Assembly: GCA_040289885.1 (NCBI GenBank)
Contig: PSLZ01000016.1
Coordinates: 1,551-65,550 of the forward strand
Reading direction: 5' to 3'
DNA from: Armatimonadota bacterium
Lineage (GTDB): Bacteria > Armatimonadota > HRBIN16
DNA length: 64,000 nt
Part shown: positions 317 to 56,446 of the stretch, piece after piece
Position numbering within the stretch: the stretch's first letter is position 1
Layout: every line of letters begins with the position of its first letter
The notes under the pieces: model-generated
Database searches by the model: none
What the model was told of the DNA's origin: nothing
The model's input: only the letters and a program-made list of their open reading frames with translations
Made by a program: the position numbers and the translations under genes

Positions 317-2158
317 TTACACTCCGGTCATTTTGCGCAGGCGTCGCAGGGACGCGCCCAGCATGCCCGGCGAGCGCGAGGCATCCCCAAGCCGACGCAG
401 GATTCGAGCCAGCCAGATCCGGCGGCTCAGCCCTGCGCTCGTGCTGGCGGTGCGGTGATCCTGCTCCGATAGGCGGTAGCCGAAGTCTCCGTGCAAGATG
501 GACATCTGGAACCAGTATTCGAAGAGGTGTATCTCCTGCAGTTTGCCCTTGCGTAACTGCGGGGGCAGGCGGTTCAGCAGGGCGCGGGGCAGGTTCCACT
601 CGCCCCAGCGGTTCAGCAGGTCGGTGCCAAGCAAATCGCTGACCTTCTGCACCAGATACAGCATACCGCGGTCCACCACGAGGTCCAACGGCAGGGCGAC
701 GCCGGTGTCCCATTCGAGGTCGATCACCGTCATCTCGCCCGTCGCCTCGTTCAGCAGGCAGTTGCGCGGGGTGAGGTCGAGGGCGTTGGCGGGGAGCCAC
801 TGGCTGGTGGGCGTGTACACGCTATGCCCCAGCCTCTGCGTGCAGAAGCTGGCGAACTGCTCGTTGTGGTTAGCGTAGCCCTCTGGCAGAACCCGCGCCA
901 GCAGGGCGGCATACCAGCGTAGCAGAGCCGATGCTCCCTCCGCATAGCGTTTGTGCCACAGGCAGTCGATAAAGAGGTGCTCCACGTTTTTCAGGTGCTG
1001 ATAGTAGGGTTCGCTGGTGTCGCTGTGAGCGGGGATGGGGGCGGGACGGTTGAGCCACTCACCGCGCACGGTTTCGACGGTAATCTGCTCGCCTTCCTGC
1101 ACGAAGAACTTGGTCTGGCGGAAGCGAGGGGCGCACTGGCTTCGCACCTTTACCGCCAGGATCGAGTGCCAGGCTTGTGGGAGCGGCTGGCGCGAGGCGA
1201 TGACCAGAAAAGAGTTCATGAAGGCGGAGGGATGGGCGTTTCTTGCGACCATGTGCAGGAACTCGCGCTCGTTGAACAGCGGTCGCTGGCGCAGGGAGTA
1301 GTCCACGGTGGGAAGATTCAGAAGCGTCAGCCAATCGAAGGCAGGCTCGCTGAAACTGCGGTCGGCGAGGATGACCTCTGGCATCTTGTAGTCGGGGAAA
1401 GGATAGAACCAGACCTGCTCGTTCAAACCCGCATCTTGCAGTTTGCTTTGCAGAAGCCCCTTGTCGAAGGTGCGGATTCCGTTATAGTCGGGATAGCCGG
1501 AGACGCTTTCGAAGGGTATTCCATAATGGTCTTCGCGGTAGCCCGCGAGGTATTTATGCCCCAGCGGGTTTTCGATAGCGATCATCATTTTGCCGTCGGG
1601 GGCGAGCCGCTGGCACAGTAGCCGGATCAGGTATCCCGCGGCATCCGGTCGGGCGATATATCTGCCCGCGTACTCCAGCACGCCGATCAGCAGGATGACG
1701 TCGAACGGCTCGGAGGGCTGGTAGTGCTCGATGTTGGCGGTTACCACTTCAAGGTGCGGAGCGTGTCGGCAACGCAGGCGAATCAGCTCGGCACGCTGAG
1801 GTGCGCCCTCCACCGCCACGATGTGCTGGATACCGGGCACCCGGCACAGATAGGAGGTAATGGCGCCACAGCCTGCTCCGACCTCCAGCACGCGCAGATG
1901 CTCTTTGGTGCGGGGTATCCAGCTGAGGATGCTGGCGCGGGCGGGCGAGAGGTGGTACGACAGCGGCCACCAGTTATACTGCATCCAGGCGTGCGCTTCA
2001 TCGAAGTCCTCGCGTTGGAAGATGTCGTGCAGGAGGGCTTCCGTGCCGTCGGCGTACTGGAAGTGCGTGCTGGCGTCAGGCGCGTTCACGCTTTCGTTTT
2101 GCGTCACTTGGGCTCCCGACCATATCATCTTTGCATCTCTACCTCGGCGGGTGGTCAC
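317..2158 (-). CDS. Class I SAM-dependent methyltransferase domain protein with a long C-terminal extension (possible kinase/phosphotransferase-like domain).
   Basis: 613-aa ORF. Motif I VLEVGAGCG plus downstream DVILLIGVLEY motif typical of Rossmann-fold MTases. The C-terminal approx 330 aa is unassigned. The start may be the internal MIWSG. Confidence 0.6.
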   Translation of the reverse strand: MTTRRGRDAKMIWSGAQVTQNESVNAPDASTHFQYADGTEALLHDIFQREDFDEAHAWMQYNWWPLSYHLSPARASILSWIPRTKEHLRVLEVGAGCGAITSYLCRVPGIQHIVAVEGAPQRAELIRLRCRHAPHLEVVTANIEHYQPSEPFDVILLIGVLEYAGRYIARPDAAGYLIRLLCQRLAPDGKMMIAIENPLGHKYLAGYREDHYGIPFESVSGYPDYNGIRTFDKGLLQSKLQDAGLNEQVWFYPFPDYKMPEVILADRSFSEPAFDWLTLLNLPTVDYSLRQRPLFNEREFLHMVARNAHPSAFMNSFLVIASRQPLPQAWHSILAVKVRSQCAPRFRQTKFFVQEGEQITVETVRGEWLNRPAPIPAHSDTSEPYYQHLKNVEHLFIDCLWHKRYAEGASALLRWYAALLARVLPEGYANHNEQFASFCTQRLGHSVYTPTSQWLPANALDLTPRNCLLNEATGEMTVIDLEWDTGVALPLDLVVDRGMLYLVQKVSDLLGTDLLNRWGEWNLPRALLNRLPPQLRKGKLQEIHLFEYWFQMSILHGDFGYRLSEQDHRTASTSAGLSRRIWLARILRRLGDASRSPGMLGASLRRLRKMTGV

Positions 2159-2293
2159 CGCCTGTTAATGACGCACGACGGGCAATCTGGGTTCAATGGG
2201 GTTGGCAGGCGGTTTTTGGGGCATCATTCGGCTTGCGAACCCGTGATTTGCTTCATCTTGAGGCAAAAAAATCGAAAAAATCTCCAAAACCTG

Positions 2294-7086: not shown

Positions 7087-7170
7087 TGGTGCCGGAGGAG
7101 GGATTCGAACCCTCACGCCTTTCGGCACCCGCTTTTGAGGCGGGCGCGTCTACCGTTCCGCCACTCCGGC
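7087..7170 (-). tRNA. tRNA-Leu (anticodon CAA), class II with a long variable arm.
   Basis: Reverse complement GCCGGAGTGGCGGAACGGTAGACGCGCCCGCCTCAAAAGCGGGTGCCGAAAGGCGTGAGGGTTCGAATCCCTCTCCGGCACCA. The 7-bp acceptor stem pairs, the anticodon loop is CUCAAAA, and the T-arm is GGTTCGAATCC. Confidence 0.9.
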
Positions 7171-13798: not shown

Positions 13799-14956
13799 TT
13801 AAAACGGATTCACGGGCTCGCCGTTGCGGCGCACCTCAAAGTGCAGGTGGGGTCCTGTCGCTAATCCCGTCGCGCCCACGTAGGCGATCACCTGCCCCTG
13901 CTTGACCACCGTGCCCTCGCTGACCGCCAGCGCAGAGCAGTGGCCGTACAGGGTAGCAACTCCTCCGCCATGGTCAATGATGACCGTGTTGCCGTAGCCG
14001 CGTCGGTAACCCGCGAAAATCACCTCGCCGTCTGCAGCAGCTTTGATGGGCGTGCCGTGCGGGGCGGCGATGTCCACCCCGGTATGCATGCGGTCGACTT
14101 TCAGAATGGGGTGGTAGCGCATCCCAAAGCCGGAGACAATCGGTCCGCTGACCGGGCGGATGAACCCGCCGCGGAAGGGTTTTGCCAGCCGAGCCTGCCC
14201 CCGCGGGGTCTGCTCCATCGCGCGCAGCATGGCGGCAATCTGGCGCGACTCCTCTTCCCACTCGTCCAGCGCCTGTTCTTTCAGCTCCCGGTCACGCGCG
14301 ATGTCTTCTAGAATCTGCCGTTTGGTCTGGGTCTGTTGCTGGAGGAGCTGCGTTTGCTGTGCCAGCTCCGCCTCCAGCTGGGCGATCTCCCACGCCTGTT
14401 TGTCCAACTGTGCCTTCGCCTGTGCGACCTCTTGCTTGTCCTGCTGGATGGCGAGCACCAGGCGCGAATCCGCCCGGGCGATGCGTCCCAGCACATAAGA
14501 GCGGCTGATGAAGTCGTGTACATCGCGCGAGCCGAGCAGGACACGCACCGTGCTGGCGTTGCCCTGCTGGTACGCCACACGCACCCGACGCGCCAGTAGT
14601 TGCTGGCGGTGTTGCAGGCGCTGTTCCAGCTCCTTCAAACGGGCGGCGGTTTTGCGCTGGAGGGCACGTACGGTGTTCAATCGAGCGCGCACCACATGCA
14701 GGCGTTTGCGGGTGGTGTCCAGGCTCTGCTCGGTTGCCAGCAGGTCGGCGGTAACGGCACGTTCGCGCTTGCGGATACGACGGATCTCTGCACGCGCCTG
14801 TTGAATCTGTTTTTTAACCTGAGCCAGCTTCGCCTGTAACTGCGCTTTGTGGGCGGGGGTGGGCTTGGAAGAGTGCTGAGGCGGCGATGCTAGCACCGTG
14901 CATAACACCAGCAAAGTCACTACCCCACTAACTATCCATCCCTTGCGTAACCCCAT
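13799..14956 (-). CDS. M23/LytM-domain peptidoglycan endopeptidase with a long N-terminal coiled coil (EnvC-like FtsEX partner).
   Basis: Signal/TM MGLRKGWIVSGVVTLLVLCTVLA, a coiled coil of about 250 aa, and a C-terminal M23 domain (HTGVDIAAPHGTPIKAA...GYGNTVIIDHGGGVATLYGH). The track ORF extends upstream into ftsX. Confidence 0.8.
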   Translation of the reverse strand: MGLRKGWIVSGVVTLLVLCTVLASPPQHSSKPTPAHKAQLQAKLAQVKKQIQQARAEIRRIRKRERAVTADLLATEQSLDTTRKRLHVVRARLNTVRALQRKTAARLKELEQRLQHRQQLLARRVRVAYQQGNASTVRVLLGSRDVHDFISRSYVLGRIARADSRLVLAIQQDKQEVAQAKAQLDKQAWEIAQLEAELAQQTQLLQQQTQTKRQILEDIARDRELKEQALDEWEEESRQIAAMLRAMEQTPRGQARLAKPFRGGFIRPVSGPIVSGFGMRYHPILKVDRMHTGVDIAAPHGTPIKAAADGEVIFAGYRRGYGNTVIIDHGGGVATLYGHCSALAVSEGTVVKQGQVIAYVGATGLATGPHLHFEVRRNGEPVNPF

Positions 14957-14976: not shown

Positions 14977-15861
14977 TTACACTGCCTGCAGGTATTTTCG
15001 GACGGAGAGCGTGCTGACCATACCCCCAATGACTGCTCCCAGTAAGCTCAATCCCAAGAACACCACCCAGAAAGGCATGGGCGAACCCCCCAGGCTGTCG
15101 ATGAAAACCAGTTTGCGCATCACGAAGTGCGAAACCATCTGAGACACCCCGAAAATCAACCCGCAGGCGATCCATGCCCCCAGCACGCCCTGCACCACTC
15201 CTTCCAGCACGAACGGCGTGCGAATAGTGCCCGATGTGGCTCCGATGAGCTGCATGATGCGTATCTCCCGCCGCCGGGCGAAGACGGTCAGACGGATCGC
15301 GTTGTAGATGATCACGCTGGTAGCGATAAGCAGAAGAAGCGTGCCTCCGATGCCGATCCAGCGCACCACCGTCGCTACCGAAAGGATGATATCCACCTCT
15401 TCTTTGGCATCACGCACGGCGTCCACCTCCGGCAGGCTCTTCAGCCACGCGCTGACCACTCCCGTACGCGATGGGTCCTTGACCTGAATGACGAAACTGT
15501 CTGGTAAGGGGTTATACGGCAGAGCGGTGGTGATCTCCTGCTGAAGCTCCTTCTGAAACTCGGGCCACGCCTGCTCTTTGGGCTTGAAGGTGACCTGCGC
15601 GATGTCGGGATGTGCCTGCAACTGCTGGTGCAGTTCCTGGGCGCGTTGGCGTGAGACGTTGTCCCTCAGGAAGACGTCGATGGCGAACTTCGGAGGCAGG
15701 CTGTTTGCCAGCCTCTCCAGCCGCCACACGATCAGCCCGAACCCACCGAACACCGCCAGTGCCAGCGCCACCGTGCCAATGGCGGCCAGCGTCATCAAGC
15801 CGTTGCGACGCAGGTTGACCAAAGCCTCCTCAATCAGAAACTCCACGTGACTAAGGTTCAT
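14977..15861 (-). CDS. ftsX: Cell division ABC transporter permease FtsX.
   Basis: N-terminus MNLSHVEFLIEEALVNLRRNGLMT, 4 TM and a periplasmic loop. It lies downstream of ftsE. Confidence 0.9.
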   Translation of the reverse strand: MNLSHVEFLIEEALVNLRRNGLMTLAAIGTVALALAVFGGFGLIVWRLERLANSLPPKFAIDVFLRDNVSRQRAQELHQQLQAHPDIAQVTFKPKEQAWPEFQKELQQEITTALPYNPLPDSFVIQVKDPSRTGVVSAWLKSLPEVDAVRDAKEEVDIILSVATVVRWIGIGGTLLLLIATSVIIYNAIRLTVFARRREIRIMQLIGATSGTIRTPFVLEGVVQGVLGAWIACGLIFGVSQMVSHFVMRKLVFIDSLGGSPMPFWVVFLGLSLLGAVIGGMVSTLSVRKYLQAV

Positions 15862-15862
15862 G

Positions 15863-15942
15863 TTAACTACGAGATGCTTCGCTGGCGCTCAGCATGACGC
15901 TGTATTGTCATTCTGAGCGAAGCGAAGAATCTCAGCCCCCCT
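15863..15942. repeat. 80-bp MITE/REP-like palindromic element inserted at the ftsE/ftsX junction. It is flanked by a 16-bp direct duplication gtgactaaggttcatg (15847-15862 and 15943-15958).
   Basis: Nested inverted repeats (gcttcgct...agcgaagc and gctcagcatgac...gtcattctgagc). The core gtcattctgagcgaagcgaagaatc recurs at 54745-54769. Confidence 0.7.
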
Positions 15943-15946
15943 GTGA

Positions 15947-16633
15947 CTAAGGTTCATGCGCGTACACCCCGAACGGAACGTCACTCACAATGGTACCCCG
16001 CTCCAGCATCACCACGCGCTTGCGCATGCGGTCAATCACATATTTATCATGGCTGGCGACCAGCACCGTCGTGCCGCGGATGTTGATGTGGCTGAGCAGT
16101 TGCATGATGTCCCACGAGGTATCGGGGTCGAGGTTACCTGTTGGCTCATCCGCGAGAAGCAGGGGCGGGTCGTTAGCGATGGCGCGGGCGATGGCAACAC
16201 GCTGTGCCTCGCCGCCTGACAGCTGCGCCGGAAAGCTATCGCATCGCCGCAACAGCCCAACCAGGTCCAGCGCGTTGGCGGTGCGCTTGCGTATCTCTTT
16301 GCGGGGCAGTCCCAGCACGCGCAGAGCGAACGCCACGTTCTCCCACACCGTCTTGTTGGGCAGTAGTCCAAAGTCTTGAAACACCACCCCCATCATGCGC
16401 CGGTAGTAGGGCAGATCGTGCGGAGGGATTTCGGCAACGTTGCGCCCTGCAACGATCACCTTGCCTCGCGTAGGGAGCACTTCGCGCGTGATGAGTTTGA
16501 GCAGGGTGGATTTGCCCGCTCCCGTCGCCCCAACCAGAAAAGCAAACTCCCCCTTCTCCACGCGCAGGTTGATGTTCCTCAGTGCGTGTACGCCGTTGGG
16601 ATATGTGACCTCTGCCTCTTGAATCTCTATCAT
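15947..16633 (-). CDS. ftsE: Cell division ATP-binding protein FtsE.
   Basis: N-terminus MIEIQEAEVTYPNGVHALRNINL, Walker A GATGAGKST, signature LSGGEAQRV and Walker B LLLADEP. The start was chosen at the internal ATG (16633). Confidence 0.9.
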   Translation of the reverse strand: MIEIQEAEVTYPNGVHALRNINLRVEKGEFAFLVGATGAGKSTLLKLITREVLPTRGKVIVAGRNVAEIPPHDLPYYRRMMGVVFQDFGLLPNKTVWENVAFALRVLGLPRKEIRKRTANALDLVGLLRRCDSFPAQLSGGEAQRVAIARAIANDPPLLLADEPTGNLDPDTSWDIMQLLSHINIRGTTVLVASHDKYVIDRMRKRVVMLERGTIVSDVPFGVYAHEP

Positions 16634-16729: not shown

Positions 16730-19234
16730 GTGAAAGCAGGTGTGGGATTGAGAGCAGTCGCGATAGTGCTGGTGAGCGTGATCGCCTTGCTGGCCGGGGT
16801 CGGTGGAACGCAGGCGCAAGGATTGACGGTGGGTCAGGGCGTTTTTACCGACCGGGACGGCGGCACGCATCGCTGGCAGGTGACCCCAGCGCACAGCCTG
16901 CAGTGGGACGGAGGGCTGTATCTGCCTGCAGGGGTGTGGTTCACACCGCAATCGCTACGTGCGGACGCCACCGAAGCCGACTTCCAGCGTGACGAGCGCC
17001 TGCTAGACGCGCTGGCACAGGCGGGTATTTCCGATGTGTGCGTGGTGCCACGCGAAGCGGGCAATGTAGTCTCGGTAGAACGCTGGCAGAGGCTGGTGGA
17101 TGCGCTGGAATCGCGCAACTTTCGCTACGGCATTTCGCTGGGCGAAGCGGGATTACCCATCGCTCAAGGCTATGTGGTTGCGCCTGCGTCCAACCGCATT
17201 GCCAACATCGTGCAGGGGGGAGTGGTCGTCTTTCGCACCCCTTACGCCGACCACGCGCTGGCATTCGTGGTAGATACACACGACAACAGCGTGCTCAGCC
17301 GCTCGCGCGTGAACGTAGAGCAGGGCGTCGGTCGCCTACCACTGCAAATGGCAGAGGGCGTGCGGGCGGTGATGGTTGCGTATCCTCACCGTCCACTGGC
17401 GGATTCAGGGGGGTTCGTGCCCGACGTGTGGGAGGGCTACGATGGATGGCGCGATAGCGTTTTACAAACGCTCGGCAAGGTGCGGTTCGGGAAGGGGCTT
17501 CGCTTTTTTGCCGACCCGCTCGGTCGGTGGACACCGCCTTCGGACGATCAGGGCATTGTGCCATCGTCGGAGATGTTCCGACTGGGCTTCGAGGCGTTTC
17601 TGGCACGCAAGTACCAGACTCTGGAGAACCTGATGAGCGCATGGGCGCTCTCCGAGCGGAATCTGGAGTCTTTCGCCGACGCGGCGCGCCAGCTCGCGCT
17701 CTGGCGGGGGCAAAAGGGGCTACCTCTGCTCTATGACCTGCAAACGGGCAATCTGCGCCGGGTGGAAGCCTCCCGATGCGCCTACTGGACGGACATCAAC
17801 CAGTACCTGCGCGAGTCCCTGCAGGATTCGGCGGACCGCATGGCGGTGGTTCTGCGCTTGCATGGAGCGGATGTGCCCGTGCTGGTGGGCTGGCAGAGGT
17901 TTCATCCCGTATACGTCAGCACGCAGAACCAGCCGGGCATCGAAGGGTTGCTGGTGGTAACCGCCGAGCGCGGTTTTAACCTCGCGGTCAAAGCGATGGC
18001 GCTGGCGATGGGGCAGGCAACGGAGAGCGTGCGCCCCACGTGGCTGGTGAGCATGGTCACGCGCGACCTCAAGCAGGACTACGCAGACAGCCAGAGCCTG
18101 CACAGCGAAGCCGAGACGCTGGCTCAGGCGGGCAGTCGTGGCTGGTTCTTTCGCATCACCGAGAACACGGTGGACGTCACCGTCCTGCAGTGGCTACGCG
18201 CTTTTCAGCAGTCCGCGCAGGCACGAGCCGAATGGCAGGAGGCGCCCAAAGTGCTGTTCTTCCCGCAATCGGCTTCGGGTATCTGCGAAGTGAGGCGACT
18301 GCCTGGGGGGGGGTGGTGGCTCCCCTCCGTGCGACCGGGGGCGATCGTCAACGTCGGGCAGAACTATCGTGCCTACCAGATCAGCACGCTGGGGGGTCAG
18401 CAGTACGTGATGTGGGCGGCGGACCGGGAACGCAAGACCAGCTTTCGCCTCACCGAGCCGCGCGTGTTCACCGCACAACTGCCCGATGGCACGCCAGTGA
18501 AGGTCAGCGGCAAAGGGCGCAGTTTCTCGATGACCCTGCCCACCGTGCCCGTGGTGTTCACCAACAGCGGCACGCTGTTCCCGGTGGAGGCGGCGGAGGA
18601 CGCCGTCAACGAACTGGCGCGACTGATCAAGGTGGGTGAGTCCCGTCGCACCGATGTGGGCACGGCTCGCTTCCGCTGGCAACAGGCGCGCGACAACCTG
18701 CGGTCGGGACAGGTGTACACCGCCTACTTACTCGCCAGCGAGGCGCTGAACGAGTTGATCCAACGTCTCGCTCAGTACCTGTGGATGGAGGCAGAGACGG
18801 CAGACGAGAGCAATTTCGACGAGGTGCTGGAACGCCCGTGGGCGAGCGACGGCAAAATCGTTCGGCTGGAGAACTATAACGACCCGCCGGCGCGGGGCTA
18901 TTTCCTGCGCTACCGATTTGCGGTGAAAGAGGAAGGCAGTTACACTATGTGGGTGGCGCGCCGGGCGGAAGGCGTTTCCCCCCTGCTGTGGAGTATCGAC
19001 GACAACGCGCCCCAGCCTCCCGAAAGCAACGTGCTCGTCGGCGAGTACGGCGAAGGGTTCGGGTGGACGCGCCTGGGGACGGTCAGGCTATCGCCCGGCT
19101 TCCACACGATCGAACTGCGGGTGGTCAACCGTGTGGGCGACAGCAGTACGCCGTATGTGCAGTGGTGTGATGTGGTGCTGTTGACCGCCGAGAACCTCAT
19201 CCCGCAGGGCACTGCCAAGCCGCCGGTCAGGTAG
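16730..19234 (+). CDS. Large secreted protein of unknown function (834 aa). It may be carbohydrate-active, with a C-terminal beta-sandwich-like domain.
   Basis: GTG start and a signal peptide MKAGVGLRAVAIVLVSVIALLAGVGGTQAQG. No catalytic motif was recognised. It is followed by a DUF624-like membrane protein and a PfkB kinase. Confidence 0.5.
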   Translation: MKAGVGLRAVAIVLVSVIALLAGVGGTQAQGLTVGQGVFTDRDGGTHRWQVTPAHSLQWDGGLYLPAGVWFTPQSLRADATEADFQRDERLLDALAQAGISDVCVVPREAGNVVSVERWQRLVDALESRNFRYGISLGEAGLPIAQGYVVAPASNRIANIVQGGVVVFRTPYADHALAFVVDTHDNSVLSRSRVNVEQGVGRLPLQMAEGVRAVMVAYPHRPLADSGGFVPDVWEGYDGWRDSVLQTLGKVRFGKGLRFFADPLGRWTPPSDDQGIVPSSEMFRLGFEAFLARKYQTLENLMSAWALSERNLESFADAARQLALWRGQKGLPLLYDLQTGNLRRVEASRCAYWTDINQYLRESLQDSADRMAVVLRLHGADVPVLVGWQRFHPVYVSTQNQPGIEGLLVVTAERGFNLAVKAMALAMGQATESVRPTWLVSMVTRDLKQDYADSQSLHSEAETLAQAGSRGWFFRITENTVDVTVLQWLRAFQQSAQARAEWQEAPKVLFFPQSASGICEVRRLPGGGWWLPSVRPGAIVNVGQNYRAYQISTLGGQQYVMWAADRERKTSFRLTEPRVFTAQLPDGTPVKVSGKGRSFSMTLPTVPVVFTNSGTLFPVEAAEDAVNELARLIKVGESRRTDVGTARFRWQQARDNLRSGQVYTAYLLASEALNELIQRLAQYLWMEAETADESNFDEVLERPWASDGKIVRLENYNDPPARGYFLRYRFAVKEEGSYTMWVARRAEGVSPLLWSIDDNAPQPPESNVLVGEYGEGFGWTRLGTVRLSPGFHTIELRVVNRVGDSSTPYVQWCDVVLLTAENLIPQGTAKPPVR

Positions 19235-53544: not shown

Positions 53545-53625
53545 GGGCGGTGTTCACCCTTTTCGCTTGCTATCCATAGTGTGCCTTATGGAGCCGAGTG
53601 CTGTCAAGCCCCGATTCTTGCCGGG

Positions 53626-54630
53626 CTAATATCCCGCCTGCTTATCCACCACGTTCGTCATCGCCGCGAGGTCGCCGGCGAGGTAGGCGTGCAGGTTGTG
53701 CAGGAATATCTGCGCCGCACGAGCGCCGTAATGCGGAGTTACCCCCGATACGTGGGGTGTGATGATCACGTTGGGCATCTGCCACAGCGGGCTATCGGCA
53801 GGGAGGGGTTCGGGGTCAAACACGTCCAGCCCTGCGCCCGCGATCCATCCCTCCTGCAGAGCGCGTATCAGCGCGGACTGGTCGATAACCCGCCCGCGTG
53901 CAATGTTGACCAGGATGGCATCCCGACGCATCAGGCGCAGTTCCCTTTCGCCGATTAGCCCCCGTGTTTCGGGGGTTAGCGGCACGCACAATACCACGTA
54001 CTCGCTCTCGCGCAGGAGGTCGGGCAGTTGCGCCGAGGACAACAGCAGGTCCACGCATTTCGCTTTCTGTTGGGGATTGCGCCGCGTGGCGATCACGCGC
54101 ATTCCAAAGGCTTTGCCACGCTCCGCGACCGCTGTGCCGATAGCACCCAGCCCGACCACGCCCAGCGTCGCACCGTGCAGTTCGCGCACCTGTTCGCGGA
54201 AACCGTCGCGGTTCCATTCGGCACGCATCTGCTGGCGCACACAGCGATGAAGCCCGCGTGCAAACATCAGCAGGATGCCGCACACGTGCTCGGCGATGGG
54301 CACGGCGTGCACCCCGCTGGCGTTGGTGAGGATAATGTCGCTCGTCAACAGTTCGGGCGAGAGGGAGCCTTCGATGCCCGCACCCAGGAACTGAATCCAG
54401 CGCAGGCGGTGGCAGTAGGGAAGCCACTCCCGCGCGAAGTGCCCACATACTATGATCTCTGCCTGCGAGAGCACCTCGGGGCAGAGTTCGTCAGGAGGTA
54501 GTAGCGTCCACTCTACCCGCTCGCGCGCCAGAGAGTCCTGCTGGCATCGTGCCAGGAACTGGTCGTGAATCTTCCAGCCGGGCGAGTAGGCAAACAGCAC
54601 CTGTGTTTTGGCCGTATCGCTCATTTCCAC
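53626..54630 (-). CDS. D-isomer-specific 2-hydroxyacid dehydrogenase (PGDH/glyoxylate reductase family).
   Basis: GVVGLGAIGTAVA NAD motif and conserved catalytic R/E/H blocks. 334 aa. Confidence 0.8.
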   Translation of the reverse strand: MEMSDTAKTQVLFAYSPGWKIHDQFLARCQQDSLARERVEWTLLPPDELCPEVLSQAEIIVCGHFAREWLPYCHRLRWIQFLGAGIEGSLSPELLTSDIILTNASGVHAVPIAEHVCGILLMFARGLHRCVRQQMRAEWNRDGFREQVRELHGATLGVVGLGAIGTAVAERGKAFGMRVIATRRNPQQKAKCVDLLLSSAQLPDLLRESEYVVLCVPLTPETRGLIGERELRLMRRDAILVNIARGRVIDQSALIRALQEGWIAGAGLDVFDPEPLPADSPLWQMPNVIITPHVSGVTPHYGARAAQIFLHNLHAYLAGDLAAMTNVVDKQAGY

Positions 54631-54660
54631 AACAACAGACGACGCAGTTTTGTGCTCCTT

Positions 54661-54800
54661 GCGTTATCCTGAGCGAGAATATCATTTGGACATTCTGACC
54701 GGCTTTCCCTGTCATTCTGGTCTGCCTCTCTCTTGTCATTCTGAGCGAAGCGAAGAATCCCAATCGTTGAACAACGAGATGCTTCACTTCGTTCAGTATG
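54661..54800. repeat. Cluster of degenerate copies of the 'cattctga' palindromic repeat family. It includes an exact 25-nt match (54745-54769) to the core of the ftsE/ftsX insertion.
   Basis: atcctgagcgagaat, gacattctgacc, gtcattctggtc, gtcattctgagcgaagcgaagaatc, then cgagatgcttc (the same modules as at 15869-15931 but reordered). Confidence 0.65.
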
Positions 54801-54842
54801 ACGAACAGACCAAGATGCTCCAGGCGGAATCCGCTATTTTCC

Positions 54843-56170
54843 CTAGCGGCGAGCCAGCCCCTGAAGCGAGCGCACGGGAGCATCGCCCGAGACCCCATGC
54901 CGCCAGAAGGTCTGCGTGCGCAACGGACCGACCGATACCATCGCTACCGGCGTGCCGGTCAGCTCCTCCACAAGCTGGATGTAGCGTTTCGCCTCCTCCG
55001 GCAGGTCCTGCCAGGTTCGCACTTCGGCGATCTCCGCTTTCCAGCCAGGCAGTTGCTCGTAGACGGGCTCACACTGTTGGAGCACCGCGCTGTCGGAGGG
55101 GAACTGCTCGATCACCTCGCCGCCGGGCAGGCGATAGGCACGGCAGATGTGCACCGTCTCCAGCCCGCTGAGCACATCCAGCAGGGTCATAGCGAACGCG
55201 GTCAGACCGTTCACCTGCGCCGAGTAGCGAAGCGCCACCGTATCCAGCCATCCACAGCGGCGCGGTCTGCCCGTGGTCGTGCCGTATTCTCTGCCTCGCT
55301 CGCGCAGGTAGTTGCCGGTCTCATCGAGCAGTTCGGTGGGGAACGCCCCAGAGCCAACGCGGGTGGTATACGCCTTCGCCACGCCGATGACGGCGTCGAT
55401 ATGGGTAGGCCCGATGCCCGTGCCCACGCACGCCCCGCCCGCCACCGGATGCGACGAGGTCACGTAGGGATAGGTGCCGTGGTCGAGGTCCAGCAGAGTG
55501 CCCTGTGCGCCCTCAAAGACCACGCGCTGACCGCTTTTCACCGCGTGATACACCAGCGGGTCGGTGTCGGTAATCAGCGGGCGCAGGATGTCGGCGTAGG
55601 CGGTATACTCCTGCCAGATCTCTTTGAAGGTAGGGCAGTTTGTCGAATAGACCTGTTCGAGTAGACGTTGCTTCTCTTCCAGCGCGAGGCGCAACACGGC
55701 GGCGAAGCGATCGGGCTGGCGCAGGTCCGCCATGCGGATACCCTTGCGGGCGGCTTTATCCGCGTAGGCGGGACCGATGCCCCGGCAAGTGGTGCCGATC
55801 TGCGCGGAACCCCTCTGCTTCTCTTCCAGCGCGTCCAGCAGGCGATGGTAGGGCATGACCACATGCGCGCTCGCACTGACGCGGAGGTTGTCCACCGCCA
55901 CCCCCTGCGCCTGCAGGGAGCGAATCTCCTCCACCAGCACCTGGGGATCTACCACCACACCGCTGGCGATGATATTGGTCACCTGGGGGCGGAAGATCCC
56001 GGAGGGCACCAGATGCAGTTTGAACTCCTGCCCGTCGAAGCGCACGGTATGCCCGGCGTTGCTACCGCCGCCATAGCGCACGACCATATCGGCATCCTGC
56101 GCGAGGCAGTCTACCACTTTGCCTTTGGCTTCATCGCCCCACTGGGCACCAACCACGACCACTGCTGGCA
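54843..56170 (-). CDS. purA: Adenylosuccinate synthetase PurA.
   Basis: MPAVVVVGAQWGDEAKGKVVD P-loop N-terminus (ATG at 56170). GGAAAGGAGG SD upstream. The track ORF has a 40-codon false extension. Confidence 0.9.
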
Positions 56171-56371
56171 TAGGGCATACAACGGCGTGTGCCGTCTTTC
56201 CTCCTTTCCGTTGCGCGGGGCAACCGGCTTGATCTATTGAAAAGGTTGGGTTGTCTGCACTGCCAACCACACAGCATCTAATATACCACAAAACAGGGGC
56301 ACAGGGTTTAGCGTCCGACAGGGACCTGGGGGCGCGGGGAGGCAGTGCGGGGCATCTTCGTCATAAAAAAA

Positions 56372-56446
56372 TGGAGCGGGAGACGGGACTCGAACCCGCG
56401 ACATCCAGCTTGGGAAGCTGGCGTTCTTCCACTGAACTACTCCCGC
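56372..56446 (-). tRNA. tRNA-Gly (anticodon CCC).
   Basis: Reverse complement GCGGGAGTAGTTCAGTGGAAGAACGCCAGCTTCCCAAGCTGGATGTCGCGGGTTCGAGTCCCGTCTCCCGCTCCA. Anticodon loop UUCCCAA. T-tract after the 3' end. Confidence 0.9.

Follow-up and report, generated by a model that had tools for sequence, protein, structure and literature searches.

A hairpin-repeat pair inside the 11-base ftsE/ftsX overlap of a hot-spring Armatimonadota species, with a 16-base duplication and both genes intact

How does a hairpin repeat come to lie at a new site, and what becomes of two overlapping genes when it lands between them? How repeats of the REP type multiply has long been asked, and we take up the question here at a single junction in a 64-kb stretch of DNA (hereafter the window) from a hot-spring Armatimonadota species, in which a pair of hairpin repeats sits inside the 11-base overlap of ftsE and ftsX, accompanied by a 16-base duplication, with both genes intact. 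Because the insertion lies inside coding DNA, the empty-site alleles of nine related species can be aligned with it base for base, and the locus offers a rare clean view of before and after. The repeat class itself is already known, and the event is a single one, in an uncultured organism.

The ftsE/ftsX junction and its empty-site alleles

The 16-mer GTGACTAAGGTTCATG occurs exactly twice on the plus strand of the window, against a chance expectation of 0.01, and no third match was found in the window with up to 2 mismatches allowed. The two copies are still identical and bracket exactly 80 bp (Table 1), precisely where the original prediction had placed a palindromic insert between direct repeats. 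Its minus-strand sequence, CATGAACCTTAGTCAC, holds both the ftsX ATG and the ftsE TAG of the two open reading frames. The total added DNA is 96 bp, comprising the 80-bp insert and a second copy of the 16-bp target, and is a multiple of three. The ftsE TAG and the functional ftsX ATG are now 85 nt apart (96 inserted minus 11 of overlap), a value with which the gene calls in L136-L138 agree and which corrects the 84 bp given initially.

An empty-site allele was sought in relatives and was found in 9 of 9 related Armatimonadota species (...GCGCATGAACCTTAGyCAC...). Their junction, ...GTGTACGCGCATGAACCTTAGCCAC..., is present in a single copy in each, and the ftsE TAG and ftsX ATG overlap by 11 nt, as had been proposed for the ancestral genes. 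The FtsX proteins of these species are 89-93% identical, and in L008 the identical 16-mer is present once. The window species is nested among the empty-site species, as sister to Ch118 and binchicken at ~15% nucleotide divergence, and the insertion is therefore the derived state. Nor is it an assembly artefact, because the identical filled junction is present in contigs of three independent assemblies (ENA ERZ1673964, ENA ERZ1673967 and JGI 3300003453). The left half of the filled junction was also recovered in four Logan assemblies, and all four contigs break inside the insert, within the arm, which suggests that the arm is repeated in the genome. As judged from the aligned alleles, the 96-bp gain occurred in the lineage of this species only.

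The duplicated 16 bp take in the entire overlap together with 1 nt on its upstream side and 4 nt on its downstream side. Since they span the whole overlap, ftsE has kept its stop, and ftsX its ATG and codons 2-5; comparison of the empty and filled alleles bears out the earlier proposal that duplication of the junction spared both genes. Had fewer than the 11 overlap bases been duplicated, either the end of ftsE or the start of ftsX would have been destroyed. Only a duplication spanning the whole overlap could have preserved both genes, and selection would explain why one so long is seen.

Table 1. Features of the window around the ftsE/ftsX junction, and the second copy of the repeat family
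Feature	Position	Strand	Basis or remarks
M23 peptidase with PcsB-type coiled coil (EnvC/PcsB-like)	13799..14956	-	third operon gene, downstream of insert
ftsX, 294 aa	14977..15861	-	ORF; Pfam FtsX_ECD + FtsX
ftsX-proximal 16-bp target copy	15847..15862	-	functional ftsX ATG 15859-15861, codons 2-5, relic TAG
80-bp insert: TTAACTAC, arm b, CTGTAT, arm a, AGCCCCCCT	15863..15942	.	tags-inward (tail-to-tail) CGTC/TGTC dimer; absent from 9 relatives
Arm b*, reads CGTCATGCTGAGCGCCAGCGAAGCATCTC	15871..15899	-	CGTC tag, 5-bp stem, tandem G.A pairs, GC/GCCA/GC top
uORF, 22 codons, MNLSHRGAEILRFAQNDNTASC, followed by stop	15889..15957	-	starts at old ftsX ATG, overlaps ftsE stop
Spacer CTGTAT, 6 bp, between two inward-facing tags	15900..15905	.	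sequence
Arm a, reads TGTCATTCTGAGCGAAGCGAAGAATCTC	15906..15933	+	TGTC tag, ATTCT/AGAAT stem, tandem G.A pairs, GCGAAGC top
ftsE-proximal 16-bp target copy, CATGAACCTTAGTCAC in gene sense	15943..15958	-	functional ftsE TAG 15947-15949; relic ftsX ATG 15955-15957
ftsE, ABC ATPase, 228 aa, ending ...VYAHEP and stop	15947..16633	-	ORF; Pfam ABC_tran
Second family copy, canonical tags-outward dimer	54734..54803	+	arm a 54734-54761, 14-nt loop, arm b 54776-54803

Hairpin repeats of the insert and their family

The insert is a dimer of ~28-nt hairpins, each with a 5' CGTC or TGTC tag, of the class known as CGTC-tagged REPs or Ssn-related motifs. Its tails are 8-9 nt long and non-palindromic, and its ends, TTAACTAC and AGCCCCCCT, carry no terminal inverted repeats. 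As DNA, the whole insert folds into one long interrupted hairpin (dG -23.2 kcal/mol, z = -6.5), and none of 200 shuffles was as good. The isolated arms are weak hairpins by standard nearest-neighbour parameters (-1.9 to -4.3 kcal/mol, z about 0), so that the evidence for single-arm hairpins is covariation rather than energy. In the alignment of arms, 93.9% of cells are paired, compared with at most 47% in all slid registers, and double-sided changes number 59 against 15.6 in shuffles, with 0 of 500 shuffles reaching 59. Covariation in the aligned sequences thus supports each arm as a hairpin of its own. The arm b* in particular gave an nhmmer match at E=2e-5, is found in identical form twice in relative L010, and has its hairpin backed by covariation. 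Across 61 distinct arms, T3 and C4 never vary, G2 is conserved in at least 90%, and C26, which follows the stem, is invariant or near-invariant; the nine-position stem starts with A-T and T-A, positions 6-7 are conserved G.A/A.G pairs, and the loops are of 3 nt (GAA) or 4 nt (GCCA). A hammerhead or K-turn reading of CUGA...GAA was considered and rejected, the core lacking the NGA of CUGANGA and there being no 3-nt bulge.

Further copies of the element, which had been expected elsewhere in the genome and in relatives, are plentiful; together with the empty sites in relatives, they leave neither of the two refuting outcomes named in the prediction standing. The 64-kb window holds 2 dimers of the family, the second (Table 1) being located between purA and a 2-hydroxyacid dehydrogenase gene; relative L010 carries three, all of them tags-outward (HH); and the exact 20-mer core of arm a was found in at least 120 metagenome contigs, ranging from 31 to 70% GC, as well as in plasmids of Cyanobacteriota, Acidobacteria, Bacteroidota and Proteobacteria. 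Single arms are common among the family copies. As for the orientation of pairs (122 sources), 62 are tags-outward and 11 tags-inward, and the only tight inward pair is that at ftsE/ftsX. The 62 canonical dimers have no flanking duplication above the control level, and the 16-bp duplication is therefore no demonstrated property of the family. Where long flanking repeats do occur, in L074, L114, L111 and L051, they are tandem arrays whose loops are identical.

Two other constructions of the family were examined and set aside. Arms 300-6000 bp apart merely mark successive intergenic regions and do not delimit an autonomous element, and att-like recombination, in which the element would have carried the 16-mer beforehand, finds no such sequence in the loops of other copies. 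No empty site could be defined for the second copy in the window, where the relatives do not share the gene order around the dehydrogenase gene, or for the three L010 dimers, whose intergenic region has diverged too far for junctions to be drawn. No donor for the 80-mer was found in the 64-kb window. Rfam gave only tRNAs and chance miRNA matches, whether for the locus (E ≤10), for the entire window or for nine canonical-dimer loci, and a search of the literature for the arm sequence in both orientations gave no relevant match.

The class of CGTC-tagged REPs was defined by Di Nocera, De Gregorio & Rocco 2013 and includes, according to the sections of that paper used here, Neisseria dRS3 and Rickettsia RPE-4 and RPE-6 (PMC3733652); Chenal et al. 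2025 renamed these repeats Ssn-related motifs (SRM/NTS) (PMC11893778). Compared with the CGTC-REPs as those sections of PMC3733652 describe them, the present arms share an unpaired CGTC or TGTC tag (the variants there being TGTC and CCTC) and short tails beginning with C, and they resemble them in having stems of ~9 positions opening with A-T and T-A. Both sets of repeats are dispersed and mostly intergenic and occur mainly as HH dimers whose spacers vary from 13 to 45 nt, TT being rare, both include heterodimers of different stems, and both are occasionally found inside or at the ends of genes. The CGTC-REPs, however, are described there as having a Watson-Crick GC-rich stem of 8-9 bp with a 4-5-nt loop, whereas the arms here have two invariant sheared-type G.A pairs, a GCGAAGC top and a 3-nt loop, and the tail is CTC here as opposed to CCA there. 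The host here belongs to the Armatimonadota, a phylum not named in the same sections of PMC3733652, which likewise contain no footprint comparable to the present filled/empty pair with its 16-bp target duplication.

The small GIY-YIG Ssn nucleases bind the hairpin as ssDNA, in a single orientation, and cut a few nt upstream of the tag (PMC11893778). Both the SRM (PMC11893778) and the present arms are directional hairpins in which GTC precedes the palindrome and C follows, mirroring the cleavage and binding determinants of SsnA; both flank, on one or both sides, ~100-aa single-domain GIY-YIG (cd10448) genes; and both exist as hundreds of dispersed copies over many phyla. The genes in question here are of ~90-115 aa (PF01541), and their ends are abutted or overlapped by the arm type at 7 loci (L143, L098, L028, L034, L014, L150 and L152), which are unrelated and all belong to organisms other than the window species. 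When further Ssn homologues were fetched blind, lineage-specific CGTC hairpins were present on the flanks in 6 of 6. In contrast to this agreement, the published SRM pattern, HGTCWYN(0-2)YYVSBRHN(0-5)WNVSBRGN(0-2)RNCYNB, has 0 matches in the window and fails both arms of the insert and the arms of the second copy, and a profile of 121 Ssn homologues detected no ssn homologue in ~230 kb of the window lineage. Hairpins of Neisseria, Rhizobium and Azospirillum, taken as positive controls, were matched by the pattern; a hairpin subtype that it overlooks is spread across phyla. A database search for ssn had Verrucomicrobia as its top matches and hence is uninformative on Armatimonadota. Relative to the SRM literature, the present case differs in being an insertion footprint. 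At the Azospirillum sufB-ssn-sufC locus, comparison with relatives showed that intergenic sequence had been replaced, with no clean filled/empty junction.

Origin of the insertion

For the CGTC-REPs, which "apparently lack a dedicated transposase", ongoing de novo formation is raised as a question in the sections of PMC3733652 used here, and Chenal et al. 2025, whose topic is transformation control in Neisseria, left open how the repeats spread (PMC11893778). What we infer about mechanism comes from a single event with one footprint, namely 80 bp whose tags face inward across a 6-bp spacer and whose ends are not palindromic, with 16 bp of duplicated target. More likely than transposition, a staggered break or a stalled replication end at the junction would have been repaired by copying or capturing a repeat segment, which could have been the junction of two canonical dimers in tandem or a canonical dimer in circular form, and synthesis would then have restarted 16 nt back, duplicating the target. 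We consider it probable that the locus is explained by a repeat dimer of the CGTC-REP/SRM class, a derived insertion and an origin of this repair type. The locus also yields predictions, on the position at which a cognate nuclease would cut and on the form of insertion polymorphisms in sister genomes.

The nuclease itself may have had a part in the event. A cut 3 nt upstream of each tag, an offset that we infer from the description of the 37-nt substrate of N. meningitidis SsnA (PMC11893778), would hit the same central point, CTG/TAT, on both strands. It is conceivable, if doubtful, that the insertion arose by Ssn-dependent mobilisation, whereby a dimer cut 3 nt outside its tags would be joined or replicated as a circle or concatemer and then copied or ligated into a staggered break. 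The joining into a circle or concatemer would account for the tags-inward order and for the 6-bp spacer as 3+3, and the copying or ligation into a staggered break for the long target duplication. If this were true, the locus would be the first insertion footprint of how CGTC-REP/SRM repeats spread, and a hydrolytic single-strand nuclease of the GIY-YIG type could, with the help of host repair, serve as a transposition system.

In a related reading, which we regard as unlikely, a circular tags-outward dimer, cut by Ssn 3 nt outside each tag and joined, was integrated or copied at ftsE/ftsX through a break in its loop, so that the insert would be a circularly permuted element and the footprint of an Ssn-dependent mobilisation pathway. 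Permutation of a canonical dimer would give exactly the order seen, with loop part, arm, tag, 6 bp, tag, arm and loop part; the 6 bp of the spacer correspond to 3+3, with the SsnA offset inferred as above; the tail next to arm b, TTAACTAC, is similar to the loop end next to arm b, TTGAACAAC, in the canonical copy in the window; and NTS-ssnA-NTS units resemble insertion sequences (PMC11893778). The 3+3 match, however, was spotted post hoc, and the cut offsets of Ssn homologues vary by at least 1 nucleotide. Moreover, since GIY-YIG nucleases act by hydrolysis and are unable to rejoin DNA, host ligation or replication must be invoked, a circular intermediate is not reported, no ssn was found in the ~230 kb of the lineage, and a circle alone does not explain the 16-nt stagger.

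The original prediction described the insert as MITE-like, which holds insofar as it is small, palindromic and multi-copy and lies inside a perfect direct target repeat, but not for its ends, which lack inverted repeats, or for the other copies, which lack a target duplication. A classical MITE, that is, a deletion derivative of an IS moved in trans by a DDE transposase acting on terminal inverted repeats with a 16-bp staggered cut, is accordingly very unlikely here, even though a few IS groups are said to produce long or variable duplications. The inverted arms are internal and inward-facing, single arms are common and each covaries as a separate hairpin, the 62 canonical dimers are without flanking duplication above control, and the sole gene repeatedly flanked by arms encodes a nuclease of ~100 aa, GIY-YIG, and no transposase. 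A transposase acting on terminal inverted repeats thus appears not to have placed the insert. Bacterial MITEs found in operons (Neisseria Correia/NEMIS, ERIC and RUP) are, as here, small palindromic inserts with a target duplication, and as co-transcribed RNA hairpins they can alter the stability or translation of neighbouring cistrons. Their terminal inverted repeats lie at the extreme ends and their duplications are short and fixed (for example TA), whereas the present insert has internal inverted arms and a 16-bp duplication.

A REPIN, the doublet of GTAG-type REPs that a RAYT (an IS200/IS605-like Y1 HUH transposase) moves through single-stranded intermediates, resembles the insert in several ways, and we nevertheless hold this origin to be highly improbable. 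As in REPINs and BIMEs, short hairpins form inverted doublets that can also fold as one long hairpin, the copies are non-autonomous, dispersed and intergenic, both doublet orientations exist and one associated enzyme gene is flanked by the repeats; the subterminal hairpins with non-palindromic tails recall IS200/IS605 ends, and a GTAG adjoins arm b*. That GTAG, however, is not kept in other copies, and the conserved tag is (C/T)GTC, in contrast to the REPs listed for RAYTs, all of which begin with GTAG or GTGG (PMC2817692). The flanked genes that were found encode hydrolytic GIY-YIG nucleases rather than Y1 (HUH) transposases, and IS200/IS605-type transposition yields no larger target duplications (PMC2817692), so that none such as that seen here would be expected of REPIN/RAYT systems. 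With the wrong tag and the wrong associated gene, a RAYT/REPIN identity was rejected.

Finally, deletion between the 16-bp direct repeats around the hairpin would restore a perfect empty site, but that the element was ancestral at ftsE/ftsX and was lost from the relatives by precise recombination of this kind is scarcely credible, since the window species is nested, all 9 relatives, in several clades, are empty and at least 3 independent precise losses would be needed, and both 16-mers remain identical.

Expression of ftsE and ftsX across the insert

With a derived insertion of repair type as the preferred reading, the consequences for the operon can be considered. The suggestion that the element adds a hairpin or attenuator to the operon survives in its first part: the insert, as 126 nt of mRNA-sense RNA, folds at -43.5 kcal/mol (z = -2.6). 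The second part found no backing, as the hairpin is followed by GUAGUUAACAUG with no U-tract, and no terminator-like or promoter-like site was detected on either strand of 15600-16200.

The operon mRNA would carry a stable stem of 24 paired positions between ftsE and ftsX, and ftsX would be cut off from the sequence that originally preceded it. A uORF (Table 1) opens at the former ftsX start, which would still be coupled to the ftsE stop; it is in frame with ftsX, traverses most of the hairpin and ends with a TGA 27 nt before the functional ATG. Judging from this arrangement of reading frames, translation of the uORF probably keeps the hairpin open and permits re-initiation, a translational relay by which co-expression of FtsE and FtsX would be maintained. 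The locus is in this respect a natural experiment, in which an essential, translationally coupled pair of genes has been moved 85 nt apart yet survives, possibly by way of the relay uORF.

Rickettsia palindromic elements are inserted in frame in protein genes, and in both cases hairpin repeats are tolerated in essential coding DNA because both frame and function are preserved. Unlike those elements, the present insert is not translated as part of the mature proteins; it parts two formerly overlapping genes and contains an in-frame stop.

An insertion at the ftsE/ftsX junction

Reading both strands of 15700-16100, we found the 16-mer GTGACTAAGGTTCATG twice, exactly 80 bp apart and flanking the insert as originally predicted; at ≤2 mismatches these are its only copies in the 64 kb (0.01 expected). 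In gene sense (minus strand, CATGAACCTTAGTCAC) the 16-mer carries both the ftsX ATG and the ftsE TAG, one copy serving each gene. Thus, ftsE does keep its stop and ftsX its start, although TAG and working ATG lie 85 nt apart rather than the 84 first given.

A protein-guided scan with one genome per species yielded nine Armatimonadota/Chthonomonadia MAGs, including the hot-spring bins HR16, SKYG40 and SKYG83, with FtsX 89-93% identical to that of the window species. The comparison of junctions proposed in the original prediction uncovered the empty-site allele in 9/9 relatives (...GTGTAyGCrC ATGAACCTkAGyCAy..., single copy), with the postulated 11-nt overlap (ftsE CAT GAA CCT TAG over ftsX ATG AAC CTT AG); one relative (L008) has the identical 16-mer once. 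The junction, single in the relatives and double in the window species, was duplicated by the insertion, as had been proposed. In a neighbour-joining analysis of ftsX and the M23 gene, the window species is nested within the empty-site set, its sister being Ch118 + binchicken_co30_132 (~15% nucleotide divergence). Given this nesting, a single gain is far more parsimonious than a series of precise losses, and the insertion is derived.

Same-species alleles were sought by exact FtsE and FtsX protein look-up. The filled junction is identical in contigs from ENA ERZ1673964, ENA ERZ1673967 and JGI 3300003453, and its left half is present in four Logan assemblies, in which every contig ends 39 nt into the insert; an FtsX-bearing Logan contig ends 31 nt short of the ATG. 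These ends are repeat-induced assembly breaks and provide a separate line of evidence for a multi-copy arm. In this look-up, no empty allele was paired with an identical FtsE. The look-up as a whole agrees with the relatives in supporting a real and derived insertion. The 834-aa ORF divergent from ftsE, without a Pfam match, is conserved beside ftsE in relatives and same-species contigs.

Positions of the features discussed (window coordinates unless a locus is named)
Feature	Position	Strand	Remark
tRNA-Leu(CAA) and tRNA-Gly(CCC) genes	7087-7170 and 56372-56446	-	sole Rfam/ARAGORN matches in the window
PcsB/EnvC-like M23 peptidase gene			next after ftsX
ftsX, FtsX protein, 294 aa	14977-15861	-	ATG supplied by 16-mer copy 15847-15862
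16-mer, two copies	15847-15862 and 15943-15958	+
insert, 80 bp	15863-15942	+	in order: TTAACTAC, GAGATGCTTCGCTGGCGCTCAGCATGACG (arm b), CTGTAT, TGTCATTCTGAGCGAAGCGAAGAATCTC (arm a), AGCCCCCCT
arm b	15871-15899	-
arm a	15906-15933	+
ftsE, ABC ATPase, 228 aa	15947-16633	-	TAG supplied by 16-mer copy 15943-15958
834-aa ORF	16730-19234	+
partial arm copy	54710-54719		first 10 nt, TGTCATTCTG
second arm pair	54734-54803		arm a, 14-nt loop, arm b
L010 (SKYG83), three dimers	1891-2179		window counterpart: ~100 nt intergenic DNA
L029, half-arm run	~800-890		18-nt unit = arm minus its 10-nt top
L143, half-arm runs	1450-1530, 2090-2170
L017, L032, L033, L036, L106, half-arm runs
L098, arm-flanked ssn homologue	2042-2350
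L152, arm read as coding sequence	1325-1350

A tagged hairpin repeat and its copies

Folding gives the insert a single long, interrupted hairpin of 24 paired positions, stable both as DNA (-23.2 kcal/mol, z = -6.5) and, as a 126 nt region, as mRNA (-43.5 kcal/mol, z = -2.6), in line with the folding originally anticipated. Comparison of 61 distinct arms further indicates that every arm forms its own hairpin: in the structure ....(((((..((...))..)))))... 93.9% of cells are paired, with all slid registers at ≤47%, and double-sided stem changes number 59 vs 15.6 in shuffles, a value reached by 0/500. Covarying stems of partner arms include ATTCT/AGAAT, ATCCT/AGGAT, ACCCT/AGGGT, ATGTT/AACAT and ATGCT/AGCAT, and the conserved positions are GTC ahead of the stem, tandem G.A/A.G pairs, a GCGAAGC top and C past the stem. 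Single arms are weak hairpins under standard energy rules; standard parameters do not allow for the unusual stability that d(GCGAAGC) and Y-GA-R tandem mismatches have in DNA.

Other genomic copies, a search for which had been proposed, were found by arm-profile search in the window, as one further, tags-outward pair with reversed arm order between the purA stop and the 2-hydroxyacid dehydrogenase start, and in L010, as a tandem array of three tags-outward dimers located upstream of ftsE. The 20-mer arm core TCTGAGCGAAGCGAAGAATC was found in at least 120 metagenome contigs (G+C 31% to 70%) and in plasmids of Planktothrix, Calothrix, Oscillatoria, Granulicella, Hymenobacter, Phocaeicola and Novosphingobium. 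An exact 20-nt core common to at least five phyla (L011-L130 and plasmid matches H1-H12) amounts to unusually strong cross-phylum conservation for an intergenic repeat. No Rfam family matches the repeat. The usual layout is TGTCA...arm...13-45-nt loop...arm...TGACA, the tags lying on the outside; arms also occur singly. Adjacent pairs are tags-outward in 62 cases vs 11 tags-inward, the latter being mostly joins of neighbouring or tandem units; the ftsE/X pair alone is tight. Canonical dimers showed no target duplication above the control level.

Several minor observations concern these copies. A partial arm precedes the second window dimer. Upstream of the dehydrogenase gene lies purA in the window and URO-D in relatives (53600-56300 vs L131-L135), which at 80-85% protein identity yet differ in gene order; this points to poorly conserved synteny in the lineage. 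L010 dimers 2 and 3 share an identical 48-nt block (19-nt spacer + arm b*) with unrelated loops and second arms, which suggests that the repeats recombine or serve one another as templates for copying. Tandem runs of the arm 5' half (TGTCATTCTGAG + 6-11 nt) sit directly ahead of a full arm, possibly as scars left where the hairpin repeatedly broke and was repaired.

Association with Ssn nucleases

The Planktothrix plasmid match adjoins a 94-aa "GIY-YIG nuclease family protein" (Pfam PF01541). Homologues found by tblastn with this protein directly abut arms in four metagenome loci, and two more, picked regardless of flanks, are bordered on either side by arm dimers. For each of six more distant plasmid homologues (Rhizobium, Spirosoma, Neisseria, Aeromonas, Azospirillum, Novosphingobium), the flanks carry lineage-specific hairpins built like the arms, as CGTCA(T/C)-stem-loop-stem-TC; that of Neisseria is dRS3. 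SsnA (cd10448), a small GIY-YIG single-strand nuclease (Ssn), binds the CGTCATTCCCGCGMAVGCGGGAATCYRG hairpin solely as ssDNA in a single orientation, its cut falling a few nucleotides upstream; cleavage needs the three nucleotides ahead of the palindrome and binding needs C past it, and "Ssn-related motifs" (SRM) flank 71% of ssnA homologues (PMC11893778). NTS-ssnA-NTS units are likened to insertion sequences, the accumulation of repeats being left open (Chenal et al. 2025, PMC11893778). "CGTC-tagged REPs", as defined by Di Nocera et al. 2013 (PMC3733652), often have the tag changed to TGTC, have stems of 8-9 opening with A/T, form predominantly tags-outside "HH" dimers, rarely tags-inside "TT" dimers and frequently heterodimers, and "apparently lack a dedicated transposase".

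The window arms fit this class by their tag, architecture and conserved positions, by the way they pair into dimers and by the genes they accompany, but they do not match the published degenerate SRM pattern, whereas positive controls do; they are therefore a CGTC-REP/SRM subtype overlooked by that pattern. The Spirosoma subtype likewise goes undetected. The original label "MITE-like" is accordingly refined to a tail-to-tail CGTC-REP/SRM dimer, a multi-copy small insert but one without terminal inverted repeats. Both the repeat class and its connection with Ssn nucleases were already known, whereas the subtype and its presence in Armatimonadota appear new, as does an insertion footprint resolved to the base, with 16 bp duplicated where two essential genes overlap. 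No ssn homologue lies within the 230 kb examined of the window lineage.

Arms are also read as coding sequence at the L028 and L034 gene ends and in L152, and several Ssn proteins end in an arm-encoded ...DSSLRSE. In L152, AATGACA within the arm provides the TGA that stops ssn as well as the ATG from which the downstream gene, for an ABC-transporter ATPase, starts (4-nt overlap). ssn and hairpin dimers lie inside conserved operons, between sufB and sufC in Azospirillum lipoferum 4B (L148) and between binding protein and ABC ATPase genes in L152-L159; in four other Azospirillum species sufB and sufC are adjacent without ssn, the intergenic sequence being replaced so that no clean junction can be drawn. 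The L098 homologue is a pseudogene, its reading frame being interrupted by TAA where its L034 relative has TAC.

Origin of the insertion and its consequence for the operon

We favour a repair-type route, in which a staggered break or stalled end within the junction would capture or copy a repeat segment from a template before synthesis resumed 16 nt back. Selection would set the duplication length (11 overlap bases + 1 + 4), all 11 overlap bases being needed for survival of both genes. The insert runs loop part, arm, tag, 6 bp, tag, arm, loop part, as would a canonical dimer after circular permutation or, equivalently, the boundary of two tandem ones. The spacer length would fit the joining of two Ssn-cut ends, as cuts 3 nt upstream of each tag, an offset inferred from how the 37-nt substrate of N. 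meningitidis SsnA is described (PMC11893778), would both land at CTG|TAT (6 = 3 + 3). However, this match is a post-hoc coincidence, offsets differ among Ssn homologues (PMC11893778) and a hydrolytic nuclease is unable to rejoin DNA; for these reasons the repair-type route is preferred. Placement by a terminal-inverted-repeat transposase is unlikely, because the insert is a TT dimer whose outer ends are not inverted repeats. An att-like model finds no support, the 16-mer being absent from other copies.

The original prediction also envisaged a hairpin or attenuator. The hairpin stands, but a scan of the junction region (15600-16200, both strands) found no terminator or promoter signal that would support an attenuator. 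The native upstream sequence of ftsX now precedes a relic ATG, not the working one. This relic, still overlapping the ftsE stop, opens a uORF (MNLSHRGAEILRFAQNDNTASC, then stop) in the ftsX reading frame (96 = 32 codons), whose end lies within the second arm, 27 nt short of the real ATG. Ribosomes arriving from ftsE by coupling would therefore open the hairpin and end translation near the ftsX start, plausibly preserving ftsE/ftsX co-expression. REP hairpins protect upstream mRNA from 3' exonucleases, and by analogy the insert could stabilise the ftsE mRNA segment.
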